A DNA stretch of 30,111 bases from an uncultured Bacteroides sp. (GTDB lineage Bacteria; Bacteroidota; Bacteroidia; Bacteroidales; GCA-2748055): positions 1 to 30,111 of the forward strand of contig CAYRLP010000001.1 in the NCBI GenBank assembly GCA_964424935.1. Reading direction: 5' to 3'. A program made the position numbers and the translations under genes. Below, in pieces: positions 2,931 to 9,518 of the stretch (position 1 is the stretch's first letter; each line of letters opens with the position of its first letter). The notes below the pieces were generated by a model that saw nothing but the letters and a program-made list of their open reading frames with translations, was not told where the DNA came from and made no database searches.

Positions 2931-3968
2931 TTATATTCTTACTTTAAAAGCGTTAGCTGGATTCACCTTAAGTAATTGATCAATATCCTCTGGTGTACAT
3001 CCTCCGGATTTCAGGGCCGGGAGAAGGTCGGTAAATATCCCTGTATATCCCCTGAAGGTCCCTCCGTTTTCTTCGTCCGGATTGTACCATCCCGCATCAT
3101 GGGAAATAAGTATACGATCCAGATATCCTGCCTTTTTAAGTTCCAGGATGCGGTTGGCATACCAATGAATATCAAAAGGTGAACCCGGTTCCCTGCCGGT
3201 ATCTATATTATCAAGAGAGATCCAGGAACCCATTGATGCAGCCTGGATGTTACCCTCCAGCGTTCCGCGCTGAGCATGTACCCAGATGAAGGAGGAAGGA
3301 TCGATTCCATGGGACTGAAGGACATGTATTTGTGCAAATGCAGGTCCATCCGGTCCGGTGTGTGAGGCAATGACCAGGCCGGTTTGTTTATGCGCCAGAG
3401 CAGCAGCCGTGATGATTTTAACATGTTCCCTTGAAAGGGTATCGCTTGCATCGACCGAAATTTTAATGAACCCCGGCCTTACCCCGCTTCCATCGATTCC
3501 CTCTTCAAACTCCTTCACCCAGATCTGAGCGATCTCTTCGGCACTTTTATGATAAAAATGTTCCGGAATATAGAGGTTGCCACGGGCTCCGTAATAACCT
3601 GTATTTGTAAGCAGATTCATTCCGGTCTGCCTGGAAAGTTCTTTTAGGATCCATGGATCTCTTCCCAGGTAGGCAGGGGTACATTCAATCAGTGTTGATA
3701 CCTGGTATTCCCGGAGTTCGGTCAGGTAAGGGAGAACTTTTTGAATTACCTCCTCCCTGTCCCAGCGATGGTATCCGGTGCTGTCGGCCCCTATAAAATC
3801 CACCAGCACATGTTCATGGCTGAGGGTGACGCCCAAAGCCGATACCGGAACCGGGCCATTTACGGTGAGGATCATTTCTTCTGTCTTCTGCTTACAGCCT
3901 GCCAGCACTGCCAGGGCCAGGCATGCGAACATGACGTACGTTATTTTGATGGATTTCATGGATCTCAT
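2931..3968 (-). CDS. Phosphotriesterase-family (PTE/PHP) amidohydrolase, predicted lipoprotein
   Basis: TLSHEH, GFIKI (carbamylated Lys position), SHTG, WVHA and ISHDAG metal-site motifs. Lipobox LAVLAGC. Start moved from 4055 to 3968 (alternative 3959) because the extension overlaps the upstream gene and a TATATTTG box abuts 3968. Confidence 0.9.
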   Translation of the reverse strand: MRSMKSIKITYVMFACLALAVLAGCKQKTEEMILTVNGPVPVSALGVTLSHEHVLVDFIGADSTGYHRWDREEVIQKVLPYLTELREYQVSTLIECTPAYLGRDPWILKELSRQTGMNLLTNTGYYGARGNLYIPEHFYHKSAEEIAQIWVKEFEEGIDGSGVRPGFIKISVDASDTLSREHVKIITAAALAHKQTGLVIASHTGPDGPAFAQIHVLQSHGIDPSSFIWVHAQRGTLEGNIQAASMGSWISLDNIDTGREPGSPFDIHWYANRILELKKAGYLDRILISHDAGWYNPDEENGGTFRGYTGIFTDLLPALKSGGCTPEDIDQLLKVNPANAFKVRI

Positions 3969-3984: not shown

Positions 3985-4656
3985 CTAACTCCATACCCAG
4001 ACAGGGGGAGCCGGAAGCGTACCATATAGAATGATATCAAATACGGCATGAGCAATCAGGGGTGGAAGGACGTGATTGGATGCTTCGCGAAGGATTCCGA
4101 ACAGAAGTCCACCAATGAAGGTCCAGAAAATCAGAAAGAAAAAATCAAATTGCAGGGGAATGGCGAGGGTCAGGATCACCAGCAATTTGTAAGAAGTATG
4201 CATTGCAGAAGCGGTGACGATGGCAAGGGTTCTACCTGCAGGACGCAAATGCCCCTGCAAATAGCCTCTGAATAGCAGTTCCTCGGCCGTACCTATAAGG
4301 GGTGCCACGAAGGCCACTCCGGTAAAGCCGGCAGGGATCAGGGTAAGCTCAAAGCGTTTTCGTGTCCATATTCCCAGCACGACGCCCAGCACGACTGCTG
4401 CGATAGAAATCAAAACGATATTGCGGTTCAGCGGACGGATTCCAAATGCTCCCCACAAACTTTCTTTTCTGGTGGAGAATGCGATCACGGCGGCGGTGCC
4501 CAGGAGTCCACCCACAGCTATACATACAGCGGGAAAAGACCGGTGAATGAACCCGGCAAACAGCAAAATGCCTGACAGGGCCAGAAATGCATCCCTGATC
4601 CGGCCCGGATTCTGTCTGATCCTGGAACTGGTGGAAAGAAATCCCTTCGGCTTCAT
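3985..4656 (-). CDS. CPBP-family (Rce1/CAAX type II, Abi) intramembrane glutamic endopeptidase
   Basis: Multi-TM protein with AEELLFRGY (EExxxR), SAMH and AHAVFD motifs. Confidence 0.88.
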   Translation of the reverse strand: MKPKGFLSTSSRIRQNPGRIRDAFLALSGILLFAGFIHRSFPAVCIAVGGLLGTAAVIAFSTRKESLWGAFGIRPLNRNIVLISIAAVVLGVVLGIWTRKRFELTLIPAGFTGVAFVAPLIGTAEELLFRGYLQGHLRPAGRTLAIVTASAMHTSYKLLVILTLAIPLQFDFFFLIFWTFIGGLLFGILREASNHVLPPLIAHAVFDIILYGTLPAPPVWVWS

Positions 4657-4657
4657 C

Positions 4658-6013
4658 CTAGGCCTTTTGCCTGGACAGGCTGCGGAATATCAGAATAAAT
4701 GGGATCAGGAGCAAGAGCCAGCCGGACCCCAGGCACAGGCCACTTCCCGGGACAATGGATGTATTAGGAAGCTCTGCTTTTAACTCATTGATCCACATTT
4801 CGTTATCCTCATATACATTATCCGATAGTATAAGGGTTTGCAACTGTTTCAGGGAGTCTAGTCCCGTCAGCTGGTCTTGTTCAAGCTGAAGCAGCAGGGT
4901 GTGAAGCTGCGGTAAGGCCTGCAAGGGAAACAGATTTTCGATTTCCCCGCAGTCGAGCAATTCAATCATTTCCAACCCTGAGAAGTGATCCGTAAGTTCT
5001 GCGAATTGCTGCTGAGTTACATTGGGAGGGAAGGAAAGGCATTGCAGGGGTCCGAGATCCTGCAGGATCTCAATATCCTTCAACCGGGAACACATGGTCA
5101 GGTTCAGCCGATTCAGCTTGTGAAGGTCAGCAAGATTGCGGATATCTGAAAGGGTATCACAGCCGATCAGGTAGAGGTTGCGGAGTGATTCAGGGAATTC
5201 AATGGAAGAAAGGCTGGTCAATCCGGATTCAGCAATGGTCAGACTTTGCAGTTTATTAAGGCCGGACAGGGGAAGCAGTTCTCCTGGTTCCGGTTCCCAG
5301 TCAGCAACAATCAGGGCATCCAGGTAGCCACAGCAATTGGCCAGATTGGACTGGGACAGTATGTTCCCATCTATCCACAGAAGCTCTACGCTGGAAAAAG
5401 GAATACTCTCTTCGGGTAATGGCAGGCCGGATGCAGTATTTATAACCAGAAACCGGGGACGGCAAATGGACAGAAGTTCCGAAAGCTGATCGGGTTCGGT
5501 TTTGTTCTCCAGAATCAGACTGGTTCCCTGAAGTGCTTCCTGCTTTTGCCGGAGTACCTCGAGCAGATCTTCGGACAATGGACTGTCAATCAGCAGGGAG
5601 GATAACTGTTCAAGTTCAGGTGTACTCAGTTTTTCAAACGCCTCCAGGGAGCTGGAGTCGGTTAATTCAAAGTAGTCCAGGCGTCCGTTCAGGTACACCG
5701 ATTCCGCATCCAGGGTATCGAATACCAGAGATAAGACAGGGCCGTCCTGGGGATGGTACCGGTGATAATATTGCCAATCTTCCCGGAACATGTAGAGCAG
5801 GTCCCCGTCAGAGGCCGGCAGAATAAGGTTCAATGACTCTTCCTGTTCACTTATGGAACCAAAAACTGCATAGGAAGTGTTTACATCACAGGCCCAGGAA
5901 GCACCTTCAATTTGCAGGAGTTCCACTTCCGGATTCCCCGTTCCGGTGCATCCGGCTAATATCCCTGCTATGGAGATCCAGGCAGGGAAAAACAGCTTTC
6001 GTATCGCGCGCAT
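4658..6013 (-). CDS. Leucine-rich-repeat lipoprotein with C-terminal TM/basic tail
   Basis: Lipobox AGILAGC. Repeats such as LQSLTI, LRNLYLIGCDTLSDI, LNRLNLTMCSRLKDI and LHTLLL. C-terminus GSGLCLGSGWLLLLIPFILIFRSLSRQKA. Confidence 0.8.
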   Translation of the reverse strand: MRAIRKLFFPAWISIAGILAGCTGTGNPEVELLQIEGASWACDVNTSYAVFGSISEQEESLNLILPASDGDLLYMFREDWQYYHRYHPQDGPVLSLVFDTLDAESVYLNGRLDYFELTDSSSLEAFEKLSTPELEQLSSLLIDSPLSEDLLEVLRQKQEALQGTSLILENKTEPDQLSELLSICRPRFLVINTASGLPLPEESIPFSSVELLWIDGNILSQSNLANCCGYLDALIVADWEPEPGELLPLSGLNKLQSLTIAESGLTSLSSIEFPESLRNLYLIGCDTLSDIRNLADLHKLNRLNLTMCSRLKDIEILQDLGPLQCLSFPPNVTQQQFAELTDHFSGLEMIELLDCGEIENLFPLQALPQLHTLLLQLEQDQLTGLDSLKQLQTLILSDNVYEDNEMWINELKAELPNTSIVPGSGLCLGSGWLLLLIPFILIFRSLSRQKA

Positions 6014-6201
6014 GATAAGAATTTAAAGGATTCACATCATGCAAGTTATGATACTTTGGAAGCCAAGTCAAGATTTACCTCTATACCGGGGCCTTATATT
6101 CGGAAGCATATCCCGGTAATCCCCAGGTAATCCTGGTGATACAGGAAGCGCATTATACCATAGGCCACCAGCAGGATAAACCACAAAGTGCACATATTTA
6201 T

Positions 6202-6209
6202 TACTTTTG
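6202..6209 (+). promoter_or_regulatory. -7 promoter box TACTTTTG, 4 nt before the GNAT ATG
   Basis: Exact TAnnTTTG match, then GGAG, then ATG at 6214. Confidence 0.6.
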
Positions 6210-6213
6210 GGAG

Positions 6214-6705
6214 ATGGAAATCAGAATAGCCGCAAAAGAGGATCTGCCAGCCATTAACAGGATCTACAACCAGGCCGTGCGACAGCGCTTCTGCACAGCT
6301 CACCTGGAAGAGATCGGCATCCGGGAACGGGAACGCTGGTTCGATGAACATGATCCAGCCCATTACCCGGTCTTTGTGGCCGTTGAGGATCACGAGGTGG
6401 TAGGATGGATGTCCCTGGGTCCTTATCGGGCGGACAGGCAGGCGCTCATCCATGTGGCCGAAGTGAGTTACTATGTGGATGAGGCGAAACGGGGGAAAGG
6501 GATAGGAAGCACACTGTTGGATCACGCCATTCGCAACGCGTCCGCTTATGGATTTTCAGTACTGATCGCCATATTGCTGAATAAAAATCCAGCCAGCATC
6601 AGATTACTGGAAAAATCAGGTTTTGCAGAGTGGGGCCGGATGCCCGGAATAGCCAGGATCGGGGATCAGTTTGCCGATCACCTTTACTATGGTTTGAAAC
6701 TCTGA
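6214..6705 (+). CDS. GNAT N-acetyltransferase, phosphinothricin-acetyltransferase (Pat/YncA-like) subfamily
   Basis: MEIRIAAKEDLPAINRIYNQA, YPVFVA, SYYVDEAKRGKGIGSTLL (acetyl-CoA motif) and NPASIRLLEKSGF. Start reassigned from 6136. Confidence 0.88.
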   Translation: MEIRIAAKEDLPAINRIYNQAVRQRFCTAHLEEIGIRERERWFDEHDPAHYPVFVAVEDHEVVGWMSLGPYRADRQALIHVAEVSYYVDEAKRGKGIGSTLLDHAIRNASAYGFSVLIAILLNKNPASIRLLEKSGFAEWGRMPGIARIGDQFADHLYYGLKL

Positions 6706-7982
6706 TCGCTTCCAAGCATAACGGGTGGATCGGCAGGATTTATGTTCTCAAGCCGGACCTCCCGGAAAACGTTCCTGGTGCGAATGGGGCTGGAAAACCG
6801 TACAGGGAGGTAGTGTTCGCCATAGCCCTGAGCTGTTCCGCCTGAATCTACTTTTTCAATCAGGACCCGCTCGGTCCGACCCAGCATCTCCTGCATGTAG
6901 CGCAGCCTGTTTTCCTCGGAAACCAGCCGGATGACTTCGCTTCTGCTGGTTTTAACCTTCTCTTCGACCTGCTCCAACATGCGGTCGGCACGCGTACCCT
7001 TTCGCCTGGAATATCTGAAGGTATGGATATGACTGAAGCGTGCTTCTTTTGCCACCCGGACGGTCTGTTCAAAATCTTCGTCCGTCTCACCCGGGAATCC
7101 AACGATCACATCGGTGGTAAAATTGAAATCCGGTATTTCCCTGCGAAAGGAATCCAGAATATCCATAAAGCTCCGGGTTGTATACATACGTCGCATTTTC
7201 AGCAGAATCCGGTCGGAACCACTCTGAATGCAAAGGTGCAGGTGCGGGGTCATTTTGGGATGCTGAAACACCTTGTAAAAGTCCGGACCGAACCCATCAG
7301 GTTCCAGGGAAGAGATCCGTATACGGAAATCCCCGGGAAGATCCGCTATTTTTTCAATGGCCCGTTCCAGGTTGTAAGGTCCGTAATTATATCGCCCGAT
7401 ATTTACCCCGGTGATGACGATTTCCTTGAATCCGTTGTCGGTTACCTGCCGGACATTCTCCAGGATCTCATTCAGGGGACGACTGATTGCCCTTCCCCGT
7501 ACCGAAGGAACAATACAGTAGGTGCAAAAATTATCGCATCCATCCTGGATCTTTATGGAAGTACGTGTATGAAGGCTTTGATCCACCGTTTCAAACCCGA
7601 ATACATTTCCGGGAAAAGTATCGGGGTGGACCACTTCTCCCTTGAAATGGGCGTCCACCAGTGATACGATATGGCTCTTTCGTGCATTATCCACCACGTA
7701 AGTGATCCGGTTGTCGGCTTCCAGCTGATCTTTGTAATTATTCGCCATGCAGCCCGTTACTACTACAAGTCCGCCCGGATTTTTCCGGACTGTCTGGTTG
7801 ATGGTATTCCGGGATTTCTGGTCGCTCTGGTTGGTAACCGTACAGGTATTGATCACGGTTACATCAGAAGGAGCAGAAGTATCCACCACCTCATAACCCG
7901 CCTGGTGAAACCGGGTTACAAGCGCATCGGTTTCATACTGGTTCAACCGGCATCCCAATGTCTTAAACGTGACCTTTTTCAT
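6687..7982 (-). CDS. mtaB: tRNA t6A37 methylthiotransferase MtaB (radical SAM)
   Basis: MKKVTFKTLGCRLNQYE, INTCTVT, VVTGC, KIQDGCDNFCTYC (CxxxCxxC), DVIVGFPGET and HTFRYSRRKGTRA. Start reassigned from 8291 to 7982. Confidence 0.92.
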   Translation of the reverse strand: MKKVTFKTLGCRLNQYETDALVTRFHQAGYEVVDTSAPSDVTVINTCTVTNQSDQKSRNTINQTVRKNPGGLVVVTGCMANNYKDQLEADNRITYVVDNARKSHIVSLVDAHFKGEVVHPDTFPGNVFGFETVDQSLHTRTSIKIQDGCDNFCTYCIVPSVRGRAISRPLNEILENVRQVTDNGFKEIVITGVNIGRYNYGPYNLERAIEKIADLPGDFRIRISSLEPDGFGPDFYKVFQHPKMTPHLHLCIQSGSDRILLKMRRMYTTRSFMDILDSFRREIPDFNFTTDVIVGFPGETDEDFEQTVRVAKEARFSHIHTFRYSRRKGTRADRMLEQVEEKVKTSRSEVIRLVSEENRLRYMQEMLGRTERVLIEKVDSGGTAQGYGEHYLPVRFSSPIRTRNVFREVRLENINPADPPVMLGSDQSFKP

Positions 7983-7986
7983 CCCG

Positions 7987-7994
7987 CAAATGTA
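7987..7994 (-). promoter_or_regulatory. -7 promoter box TACATTTG, 4 nt before the mtaB ATG
   Basis: Exact TAnnTTTG match, then CGGG, then ATG. Confidence 0.7.
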
Positions 7995-8066
7995 AACAAT
8001 CCACCCGATGTTTTGTGCGAATTCGCTACCTTGTGGAACGTATCTGTTTCTGTAATTTCTTCCGAT

Positions 8067-9518
8067 ATGATCACTTCCCGCTTTCTTTATCATGTCCTGT
8101 TCCTGGGAATAGTCCTCTCCGGATGCTCTTCCAAAAGCGATCAGGAAATACAACAGTACCAGCGTCCCAACATCATCTATATCCTGGCAGACGACCTGGG
8201 GTATGGTGATCTGGGTTGCTACGGCCAGGAAAAGATTTCCACTCCTCATCTGGATGAGCTGGCCAGGAGAGGAGTCCGGTTTACCAGGCATTATTCAGGC
8301 AGTACCGTTTGTGCTCCTTCCCGTTCCGTGCTGATGACAGGCTTGCATACCGGACATACTCCCATCAGGGGAAACCGGGAGATCAGGCCGGAAGGACAAT
8401 GGCCCCTGCCCGATTCAGTAGTGACGCTGGCCGAACAGCTGAAAACGGCGGGATACGTTACAGGGGCCTTCGGGAAATGGGGTCTGGGCTTTCCCGGATC
8501 AGAGGGGGATCCCGTAAATCAGGGCTTTGACTATTTCTTCGGGTACAATTGCCAGCGCTTTGCCCACCGATATTACCCTGCTTATCTGTGGGAAAATGAA
8601 AAAAAGATATACCTGGAAGGGAATGACTGGAGCCGCACGGAATCCTATGCTCCGGACCGGATCCAGCAGAAAGCCATTGAATTTATCCGGCAAAATCGCG
8701 ATACCTCCTTTTTTGCTTTCCTGCCGATAACCATCCCCCATGCGGAGCTGATCATTCCGGATGATGAACTGTTCAGGCAATATCTGGGTAAATTTCCTGA
8801 AACCCCTTATGTGGGAAGAGAAGGATCGGATTATGGTCCGGCTTTGGTGATAGGAAGTTACTGCAGCCAGGAGAATCCGCATGCCACGTTCGCTGCCATG
8901 GTCGCGCGCCTGGACGGATACGTGGGGGAGATCATAGATGTGGTGGAAGAACTGGGGCTGTCTGAAAATACAGTGATTATGTTTACAAGCGACAACGGTC
9001 CCCATCTGGAAGGGGGAGCGGATCCTGGATTTTTTAAAAGCAATGGAGGCCTGCGGGGATTTAAAAGGGATCTTTATGAAGGAGGCATCCGGGTTCCTTT
9101 CATTGTTGCCTGGCCCGGCACCATTGAGCCTGGAAGGGAGTCGGATCATCCATCCGCATTCTGGGATGTGCTTCCCACCCTGGCAGAACTGGTCGGTTTT
9201 GAGGACGGACAGACAGACGGGATCTCTTTTCTTCCCGAGTTGCTCGGTAAACAACAGACCGAACATACCTACCTGTACTGGGAATTTCATGAAAGGGGAG
9301 GCGCTCAGGCCATCCTGATGGGTCCGTGGAAGGCGGTCAGGCTGAATGTGGGAAAGGATCCCCAGGCTCCGCTGGAATTGTACAATCTGGATGAAGATCC
9401 CCGGGAGGGTACCAATGTGGCCGCATCACATCCGGAACTGGTAAAGACCCTCGCAGAGTTCATGGAAGGGGCGCGGAAACCGTCGGAAACATTTAATTTC
9501 GGCAGATCAGGGAACTGA
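8067..9518 (+). CDS. Arylsulfatase (Cys-type formylglycine sulfatase), predicted lipoprotein
   Basis: RPNIIYILADDLGYGD, CAPSRSVLMTG (CxPxR), GKWGLG, FTSDNG and KRDLYEGGIRVP. Lipobox IVLSGC. The 7671 start is an extension antisense to mtaB. Confidence 0.93.
   Translation: MITSRFLYHVLFLGIVLSGCSSKSDQEIQQYQRPNIIYILADDLGYGDLGCYGQEKISTPHLDELARRGVRFTRHYSGSTVCAPSRSVLMTGLHTGHTPIRGNREIRPEGQWPLPDSVVTLAEQLKTAGYVTGAFGKWGLGFPGSEGDPVNQGFDYFFGYNCQRFAHRYYPAYLWENEKKIYLEGNDWSRTESYAPDRIQQKAIEFIRQNRDTSFFAFLPITIPHAELIIPDDELFRQYLGKFPETPYVGREGSDYGPALVIGSYCSQENPHATFAAMVARLDGYVGEIIDVVEELGLSENTVIMFTSDNGPHLEGGADPGFFKSNGGLRGFKRDLYEGGIRVPFIVAWPGTIEPGRESDHPSAFWDVLPTLAELVGFEDGQTDGISFLPELLGKQQTEHTYLYWEFHERGGAQAILMGPWKAVRLNVGKDPQAPLELYNLDEDPREGTNVAASHPELVKTLAEFMEGARKPSETFNFGRSGN

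Follow-up and report, generated by a model that had tools for sequence, protein, structure and literature searches.

A conserved cysteine-containing tail on a leucine-rich repeat protein family is strictly paired with a putative myxosortase-like CPBP protease

The window examined here is a 30,111-nucleotide stretch of DNA from an uncultured Bacteroides sp. (order Bacteroidales; assembly GCA_964424935.1, contig CAYRLP010000001.1). It carries two adjacent genes, one for an exported leucine-rich repeat (LRR) protein that ends in a short cysteine-containing tail and one for a CPBP-family intramembrane protease. The LRR-tail gene and the CPBP gene form an obligate pair that is found at one locus per genome, and both their adjacency and the conservation of the tail are far beyond chance. 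On balance, we favor the view that this two-gene module consists of a single LRR client and a private, myxosortase-like protease that removes the client's Cys-LGSGW tail. The module appears to be related to the myxosortase tail-processing systems and not to have been described before. CPBP enzymes are abundant and mostly unexplained, and MrtX is the only bacterial one with a proven substrate.

Both genes reside on the minus strand, as do all features of the pair described below. The LRR lipoprotein gene comes first (4658..6013; an open reading frame (ORF) of 451 residues, including the TAG stop codon at 4660-4658) and encodes the proposed client. After a single spacer base at 4657, the ATG at 4656-4654 begins the gene for a CPBP/Rce1-like glutamic intramembrane protease (3985..4656), a 223-residue ORF with seven helices and a match to PF02517. 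The tail comprises residues 423-451 of the LRR protein (4661-4747) and reads GSGLCLGSG-WLLLLIPFILIF-RSLSRQKA; the C-terminal sequence of the protein ends in NTSIVPGSGLCLGSGWLLLLIPFILIFRSLSRQKA. Cys427 is encoded by TGC at 4733-4735 and lies 24 residues from the C-terminus. Translation and Pfam searches bear out every position that an earlier reading of the letters of the window (the original prediction) had given for the tail, the Cys codon, the 1-nucleotide junction and the CPBP ORF.

Three elements can be recognized within the tail. The signature motif, GSGLC-LGSGW-LLLLIP (residues 423-438; 4700..4747), contains Cys427 and Pro438 (4700-4702). It overlaps a hydrophobic membrane segment, L426-F443 (4685..4738), most of which falls in a helix at residues 431-450 of the AlphaFold2 model. 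The basic C-terminal cluster RSLSRQKA (4661..4684) follows, on the cytoplasmic side. Because the hydrophobic span is 18 residues long, the Cys-LGSG motif is placed at the outer-leaflet, periplasmic end of the membrane segment. As judged from sequence, Cys-LGSG and Pro438 could supply the helix-destabilizing residues that are expected in substrates of intramembrane proteases.

A sequence search produced ~200 close homologs of the LRR protein. In 120 close homologs (47-74% identity) the tail is near-invariant, with the form (I/V)VPGSG(L/I/M)CLGSGW...P...FR..FR.K. An unbiased measure of tail conservation came from an exhaustive search of 1.84 billion representative proteins with a query that lacks the tail (residues 1-405). 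Among the best 150 matches, 83 are family-sized (400-560 residues; 23-57% identity, with the top match at 57%), and 81 of these 83 have C[LMV]G[STK][GA]x close to their C-terminal end, as had been expected if the Cys/Gly motif is conserved in homologs. The most common variants are CLGSGW (60 proteins) and CMGSGW (11), and a Pro is found at +11 from the Cys in 80 of the 81. The two exceptions align to LRR repeats only, and the longer matches (600-2300 residues) are generic LRR proteins without the motif.

When the 81 members are aligned, pairwise identity averages 0.67 for the tail core versus 0.27 for the body, and the most conserved 16-residue stretch of the whole LRR protein is 421-436. Only Cys427, Gly429 and Pro438 form fully conserved columns; the other motif columns are Ser at +3 (96%), Gly at +4 (98%) and Trp at +5 (95%). 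Since these 81 members were selected on the motif, the independent conservation result is the 81/83 given above. The putative recognition motif is thus sharply defined by the Cys, LGSGW and the Pro at +11.

The layout of the tail is also conserved. Across 82 family representatives, the Cys is followed by an uncharged run with a median length of 19 residues, the 10 residues past this hydrophobic stretch contain a median of 4 Lys/Arg, and 23-37 residues separate the Cys from the C-terminus. The tripartite Cys-type signal known from MYXO-, JDVT-, Synerg- and CGP-CTERM tails, meaning a Cys motif, a hydrophobic helix and a basic cluster at the extreme C-terminus, is therefore present family-wide, in agreement with the architecture originally proposed. 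The tail alone (38 or 48 residues) matches 0 NCBIfam families at E<=10, and the full-length protein matched no tail model in the NCBIfam scan.

In the Bacteroidales clade of the window, the motif is a perfect peptide palindrome about the Cys, G-S-G-L-C-L-G-S-G (4721-4747, minus strand). Beyond this clade only the post-Cys half is kept, and the pre-Cys residues vary (for example, NEGF, NSGA, GGGF or VAPL).

The genomic distribution of the pair was established by scanning one genome per GTDB species with a tail alignment and the exact pattern CLGSGW[LI][LI]L. Of 139 pattern matches, 105 were confirmed and 34 were unconfirmed or unexamined; 80 loci were taken from 80 assemblies of ~10 phyla. A CPBP-clade gene is found directly downstream, on the same strand, in 79/79 testable loci, and one locus (L039) ends at a contig edge. 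At three of the loci (L001, L015 and L017) the CPBP gene was missed by ATG-only ORF calling and was recovered by a three-frame search with a hidden Markov model (HMM). Clustering of neighboring ORFs recovers the LRR family in 79 loci, the CPBP family in 73 and the next family in 10; no third conserved gene was found near the pair among the 80 loci.

The reverse look-up gives a corresponding result. The CPBP clade as collected is dominated by Bacteroidales, and a cross-phylum CPBP profile search added ~ten distant members. Four of these were looked up (P0392 from Aminicenantes, P0396, P0401 and P0113), and in 4/4 an LRR-tail gene is directly upstream. Co-occurrence with a Cys-containing tripartite C-terminal signal, which is a criterion for Mrt families, thus holds whether the search starts from the tail or from the protease. 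The expected linkage of homologs to a CPBP gene extends to a fusion variant discussed below (P0330).

Stop-transfer signals generically consist of a membrane helix with a basic cluster after it, and the tail might accordingly be a mere membrane anchor that happens to adjoin a functionally unrelated CPBP gene. We consider this explanation hardly credible. A simple anchor would not keep Cys, Gly, Ser, Gly and Trp plus an in-helix Pro at 27% body identity, and adjacency in every testable locus, across phyla that share no other synteny, is not coincidence.

According to depositor labels, 64/80 loci are from Bacteroidota and 16/80 are from other phyla. Cultured carriers in Bacteroidota include Lutimonas vermicola, Flavobacterium maritimum, Gaetbulibacter aestuarii and Cyclobacteriaceae YHN15. 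The other labels are Spirochaetota, Lentisphaerae, Opitutales, Planctomycetota/Phycisphaerae, Thermodesulfobacteriota/Deltaproteobacteria, Eisenbacteria, Anaerolineales, Pseudomonadota, Acidobacteriota and Gemmatimonadales. The count of ~ten phyla is approximate because near-identical LRR proteins carry different phylum labels in metagenome-assembled genomes (MAGs): L068 (Anaerolineales) resembles L079 (Phycisphaerae) in this way, and L056 resembles L060 and L046. The conflicting labels are Anaerolineales on one side and Phycisphaerae or Planctomycetota on the other. This suggests mislabelled MAG bins or recent transfer.

A sorting signal in the general sense should recur on unrelated N-terminal domains, but this part of the original prediction was not supported. 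Every tail-bearing ORF in the 80 loci matches the LRR-family HMM over its full length, and no tail was found on an unrelated protein among these loci by the exact-pattern scan, for which 34/139 matches are unconfirmed or unexamined. Among these loci the tail is confined to one ~450-residue LRR family; the genes therefore form a dedicated pair rather than a modular sorting system. The pair had been proposed as a dedicated Bacteroidota system; it is dedicated, with one family and one locus per genome, but it is not restricted to Bacteroidota.

Variation in gene content was noted at a few loci. Tandem LRR-tail genes precede one CPBP gene at L056:302-3854, L060:3781-7240 and L078:3288-6784, where the single protease may serve two paralogous clients; the second LRR-tail copy in L060 was called merely as an 89-residue ORF. 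At L076:5752-6335 both the LRR and CPBP genes contain frameshifts; this copy of the module may be decaying, or the assembly may be at fault.

The window's CPBP protein is a member of Pfam family PF02517 (Rce1-like), which it matches over residues 114-209 with 49.1 bits (cut-off 22.4). In NCBIfam, myxosortase-type models rank first, all with scores far under their cut-offs (score/cut-off in bits: Mrt_core 33.6/100, MrtS 31.2/130, MrtP 28.4/250, MrtJ 27.5/75, MrtC 18.4/195, MrtX 18.2/180), and the protein is therefore outside the curated families. Among 21 diverse members of the clade, matches at E<=1e-3 were obtained with Mrt_core (20/21), MrtJ (20/21), MrtS (19/21) and ABC_perm_CPBP (10/21), and the best E-values are ~1e-9 to 1e-10; this ranking discriminates weakly because NCBIfam holds few CPBP models that are not of the Mrt type.

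The residues required for catalysis are present. Motif 1, E125-E126-L-L-F-R130 (EELLFR; 4267..4284), lies in helix 4 (residues 114-140); it is invariant in a 21-sequence cross-phylum alignment, and its conservation among 68 clade sequences is at least 95%. Helix 5 (142-162) contains His153-x-x-Tyr156-Lys157 (4186..4200), which combines the motif 2 His (4198-4200) with a clade-specific Tyr-Lys. Motif 3, H203-A-V-F-D207 (HAVFD; 4036..4050), is in helix 7 (197-211), with H203, F206 and D207 invariant. The protein finishes with a clade-specific end, P218-V-W220-V-W222-S (3988..4005), in which P218, W220 and W222 are invariant across phyla; the CPBP homolog at the fusion locus L085 likewise ends in APWWVW. 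The complete set of cross-phylum invariant residues is R99, E125, E126, R130, G131, H153, Y156, K157, H203, F206, D207, Y211, P218, W220 and W222. R99, Y156-K157, Y211 and the P-x-W-V-W end constitute a clade signature beyond the catalytic motifs that could define a clade-specific HMM.

The AlphaFold2 model of the protease (predicted local distance difference test (pLDDT) score 91) has seven membrane helices and holds the catalytic E125, E126, R130, H153, H203 and D207 within helices 4, 5 and 7. The top PDB match of this model in Foldseek is MmRce1 (4cad_C; probability 1.0, template-modeling (TM) score 0.52). This relationship was found by fold search only, as the CPBP profile matched nothing at E<=1 among PDB chain sequences. 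Loops on the side of the N-terminus contain 13 Lys/Arg residues versus 4 on the other side; this count puts the N-terminus on the cytoplasmic side of the membrane and the C-terminal P-x-W-V-W end on the periplasmic side. This end is thus predicted to be near where the Gly-Ser-Gly-Trp of the tail would sit. The kinship to myxosortase that was originally suggested is upheld to the extent that the catalytic residues are kept and the nearest curated relatives are Mrt-type models.

The remainder of the LRR protein has three parts. Its N-terminal sequence is MRAIRKLFFPAWISIAGILAGC, which includes a signal peptide with lipobox L-A-G-C at residues 19-22 (5948..6013; Cys22 codon 5948-5950; helix 2-20 in the AlphaFold2 model). 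A small β-rich domain follows (residues 31-117; 5663..5923), with conserved G70-D71, Y86 and G91. The LRR solenoid occupies residues ~139-424 (4742..5599) and ends with the strand IVPGSG (419-424); a low-confidence hinge at 428-431 (LGSG) leads into the C-terminal helix. Mean pLDDT of the model is 86.

Scans of NCBIfam and Pfam returned weak LRR matches only, the Pfam model LRR_14 scoring 38 bits, slightly below its cut-off of 40. Foldseek matched the model at probability 1.0 to LRR structures that include NRG1, COI1, LIC10831, LRRC8 and InlA. The N-terminal β domain has no family match in NCBIfam or Pfam, and the whole-model Foldseek search gave generic LRR solenoids only. In three cultured carriers that were checked in RefSeq, the client is named "hypothetical protein" and the protease "CPBP family intramembrane glutamic endopeptidase."

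The LRR protein had been expected to be anchored at both ends. The L-A-G-C lipobox of the window protein, as read from the translation, fits the bacterial lipoprotein consensus ([LVI][ASTVI][GAS]C after a hydrophobic signal core) and agrees with this, but it is not a property of the family: a lipobox-like N-terminus is present in only 39/82 representatives, as judged by a crude pattern. Many members begin instead with a helix that resembles a signal anchor. In these signal-anchored members the LRR domain has to remain at the inner membrane, whether or not the tail is removed. Because many members are anchored there by the N-terminus, surface delivery, which is what MYXO-CTERM serves, is unlikely to be the common function of the module.

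If the tail is a substrate, the following mechanism can be envisaged. An N-terminal signal, which in the window is a lipoprotein signal with LAGC, would export the LRR protein until L426-F443 and the basic cluster halt transfer, leaving the LRR solenoid in the periplasm and tethered to the inner membrane. The outer edge of the helix would then display Gly-(bulky hydrophobic)-Cys-Leu-Gly-Ser-Gly-Trp, with the invariant Pro 11 residues past the Cys. The protease, presumably made from the same transcript by the gene 1 nucleotide downstream, would bind this membrane-embedded motif and remove the tail by using a Glu-Glu/His/His-Asp active site buried in helices 4, 5 and 7. By analogy with Rce1 and MrtX, the cut would most likely fall just after the Cys, possibly following modification of its thiol. 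The mature LRR protein would be held by its N-terminal lipid or anchor only, perhaps supplemented by a modified C-terminal Cys.

Known Cys-tail systems provide precedents for both parts of this mechanism. The JDVT-CTERM/MrtJ system (NF033192) has a similar organization, in that a tripartite tail with a single invariant Cys and conserved in-helix residues is found on approximately one client per genome, directly beside the gene for a small CPBP protease, MrtJ (bioRxiv 10.1101/2023.06.07.544157). The conserved in-helix residues of JDVT-CTERM are a DP pair (bioRxiv 10.1101/2023.06.07.544157) nine residues past the Cys, whereas the LRR tail has CLGSGW and a Pro at +11 and does not match the JDVT-CTERM tail HMM. 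The LRR-linked protease scores 27.5 bits with the MrtJ model, whose cut-off is 75. Furthermore, JDVT-CTERM clients often share no other homology, whereas all clients here belong to one LRR family, and JDVT-CTERM was described in Pseudomonadota, whereas the LRR module is mainly from Bacteroidota plus ~9 other phyla.

For chemistry, the closest precedent is MYXO-CTERM/MrtX (NF040593). MrtX cleaves the Cys-containing MYXO-CTERM tail, requires its cysteines and functions in E. coli; its 239 residues form seven helices, the fourth of which carries EExxxR and the seventh HxxxN/D (PMC11980579). The LRR tail resembles MYXO-CTERM in its invariant Cys motif, helix and basic cluster, and the LRR-linked protease shares the size (~220-240 residues), the seven helices and the placement of both motifs. 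MrtX is the sole CPBP protein experimentally proven to cut such a tail. Unlike the LRR-linked protease, MrtX has a housekeeping role and serves more than 30 unrelated clients, which are unlinked to its gene, and its model gives the LRR-linked protease only 18.2 bits versus a cut-off of 180. Thus, by analogy, the module combines an organization like that of JDVT-CTERM/MrtJ with what would be a chemistry like that of MYXO-CTERM/MrtX.

Two further systems share more limited features. Synerg-CTERM/MrtS (TIGR04564, NF040589) has a Ser/Gly-rich cluster before an invariant Cys and an invariant Pro in a Leu-rich helix, the Pro having been noted previously (bioRxiv 10.1101/2023.06.07.544157). MrtS is the second-best curated match of the LRR-linked protease, at 31.2 bits versus a cut-off of 130. 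However, Synerg-CTERM lacks a spacer between Cys and helix, whereas LGSGW follows the Cys in the LRR tail; its tail HMM does not match, it occurs in Synergistales only, and it has been linked by profiling to the type II secretion system. The Rce1/MmRce1 CAAX proteases (PDB 4CAD) share the fold, the catalytic motifs and a substrate logic built around a Cys near the C-terminus. Their substrates, however, are cytosolic, prenylated and end three residues past the Cys, whereas the LRR tail has its Cys 24 residues from the end and at the periplasmic face of a membrane helix, and MmRce1 has eight membrane helices (bioRxiv 10.1101/2023.06.07.544157) rather than seven. The Haft preprint on Cys-type tails (bioRxiv 10.1101/2023.06.07.544157) does not mention Bacteroidota or LRR clients, and a literature search on the LRR/CPBP pair gave nothing beyond the Haft and Wall papers.

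Several considerations weigh against removal of the tail by the protease. We infer tail binding, cleavage and its site, and any lipidation or other modification, from sequence and model data. The tail is never found on other families, and the modularity that defines a sorting signal is thus missing; because the tail and the LRR domain always occur together, a substrate and a permanent or ligand-regulated partner look alike to comparative genomics. The protease is far below all curated Mrt cut-offs (for example, 33.6 versus 100 bits for Mrt_core), and the Mrt ranking is a weak discriminator; ABC_perm_CPBP also matches 10 of the 21 clade members. Moreover, tail removal would not release or re-sort members that are N-terminally anchored or fused to BlaR1/M56, and the benefit of cleavage is not obvious.

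The fusion in question is P0330, an 829-residue protein in which a BlaR1/Peptidase_M56 membrane domain (Pfam E = 7.7e-35) precedes the LRR family domain and tail (CMGSGW). At its locus (L085:4558-8169; JGI metagenome 3300079582), a gene for a BlaI-type repressor (Penicillinase_R) is followed by the M56::LRR::tail gene and then by a CPBP gene of the same clade. This N-terminal M56 fusion is the only architectural variant among tail bearers, and it is a single cluster representative. This organization suggests that a BlaR1-like transducer can use the LRR domain as its extracytoplasmic sensor. A radical SAM/SPASM gene lies after the CPBP gene.

These observations raise a possible, though clearly less favored, explanation, wherein the pair is an inner-membrane device for signaling or regulated proteolysis and not for constitutive maturation. 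The LRR ectodomain would bind a ligand, and the tail would be either permanently docked in the CPBP protein or cut upon ligand binding. Strict one-to-one pairing at a single locus per genome, a tail that never moves to other proteins, N-terminal anchoring of many members in the inner membrane and the use of the LRR domain plus tail as the extracytoplasmic part of the BlaR1/M56 transducer are all consistent with such a sensor, and non-proteolytic partners with the CPBP fold are known (SpdC, LnsB and APH-1; PMC7387801). Those partners, however, typically lose the catalytic residues (PMC7387801), whereas the LRR-linked clade retains all of them. A purely structural role for the CPBP protein is disfavored because its active site is intact, whereas SpdC and LnsB have lost these residues (PMC7387801). 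In addition, the cytoplasmic stub past the helix has only ~8-18 poorly conserved residues, and cleavage would thus free no signaling domain; the BlaR1 fusion is a lone cluster representative.

A specific form of this idea, which we offer more tentatively still, is that the module is an unrecognized envelope sensor in which ligand binding by the LRR domain controls cutting or release of the docked tail by the protease. This would amount to regulated intramembrane proteolysis without a cytoplasmic effector domain, and in some lineages it would be under BlaR1/BlaI-type control.

Re-anchoring of the client is an unlikely explanation. In this scheme, the CPBP protein would transfer a lipid to Cys427, or enable its transfer, so that the C-terminal peptide anchor is swapped for a lipid anchor. 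The Cys is invariant and sits at the membrane edge, the working model for MYXO-CTERM has lipidation precede cleavage (PMC11980579), and LnsB, a CPBP-like protein, is involved in the acylation of lipoproteins (PMC7387801). However, catalytic CPBP proteins have no known lipid-transfer chemistry, LnsB lacks the catalytic motifs (PMC7387801), and no acyltransferase gene is conserved near the pair in the neighbor clustering of the 80 loci.

The residue that precedes the tail Cys also bears on this scheme. An Lgt lipobox requires a small residue before the Cys. The preceding residue in the LRR tails is bulky (Phe, Leu, Ile or Met in 76/82 representatives), which makes Lgt-type lipidation of the tail Cys doubtful and is a further point both against re-anchoring and against any maturation by tail cleavage that includes such a step. 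Lgt-type lipidation was considered as a candidate modification in its own right and was set aside as unlikely.

The original prediction also offered an Abi-type immunity pair as an alternative, and this finds little in its favor. CPBP genes were once called Abi, and some adjoin bacteriocin genes (bioRxiv 10.1101/2023.06.07.544157); in this scheme a toxic peptide would be processed or countered by the CPBP protein, and the LRR protein would be the receptor. PADLOC returned 0 families for either protein at E<=0.01, however, and no small peptide or toxin gene is conserved nearby according to neighbor clustering. The upstream partner is a 450-residue exported LRR protein and not a bacteriocin, and the locus is housekeeping chromosome with conserved synteny in a related MAG. 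An Abi, immunity or bacteriocin function is thus very improbable.

If the preferred interpretation, tail removal by the paired protease, is correct, then processing of Cys-containing tails extends to Bacteroidota and ~nine other phyla, and to proteins that probably stay at the inner membrane. Clients of this kind would call into question whether such tails serve surface display via type II secretion alone. As a putative pair of one enzyme and one substrate, the module is simple to test, and its presence in cultured isolates such as Flavobacterium maritimum makes it directly testable. The pairing also provides a function-linked handle on a widespread LRR family that is annotated as hypothetical protein in the three RefSeq isolates that were checked.

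The surroundings of the pair in the window are ordinary chromosome. The Bacteroidales MAG GCA_029210725.1 is syntenic with the window and shares genes for a sulfatase, a radical-SAM protein, the LRR and CPBP proteins, a phosphotriesterase (PTE)-family hydrolase, a nucleoside deoxyribosyltransferase and an aldo-keto reductase. Comparison of neighboring ORFs indicates that this synteny is lost beyond close relatives.

The PTE-family (PF02126) gene (2931-3959, minus strand) encodes a protein with its own LAGC lipobox and starts ~25 nucleotides past the CPBP stop codon; the true start probably lies downstream of the TTG at 4055 that is listed for this ORF. L084 has the gene in a syntenic position, but in other lineages it is not kept beside the LRR/CPBP pair. 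On the opposite side of the pair, a GNAT acetyltransferase gene (6136-6705, plus strand) separates the LRR gene from the radical-SAM (MiaB-like) gene, and its 3' end overlaps the end of a long minus-strand ORF (6687-8291). L084, although otherwise syntenic, lacks this acetyltransferase gene.

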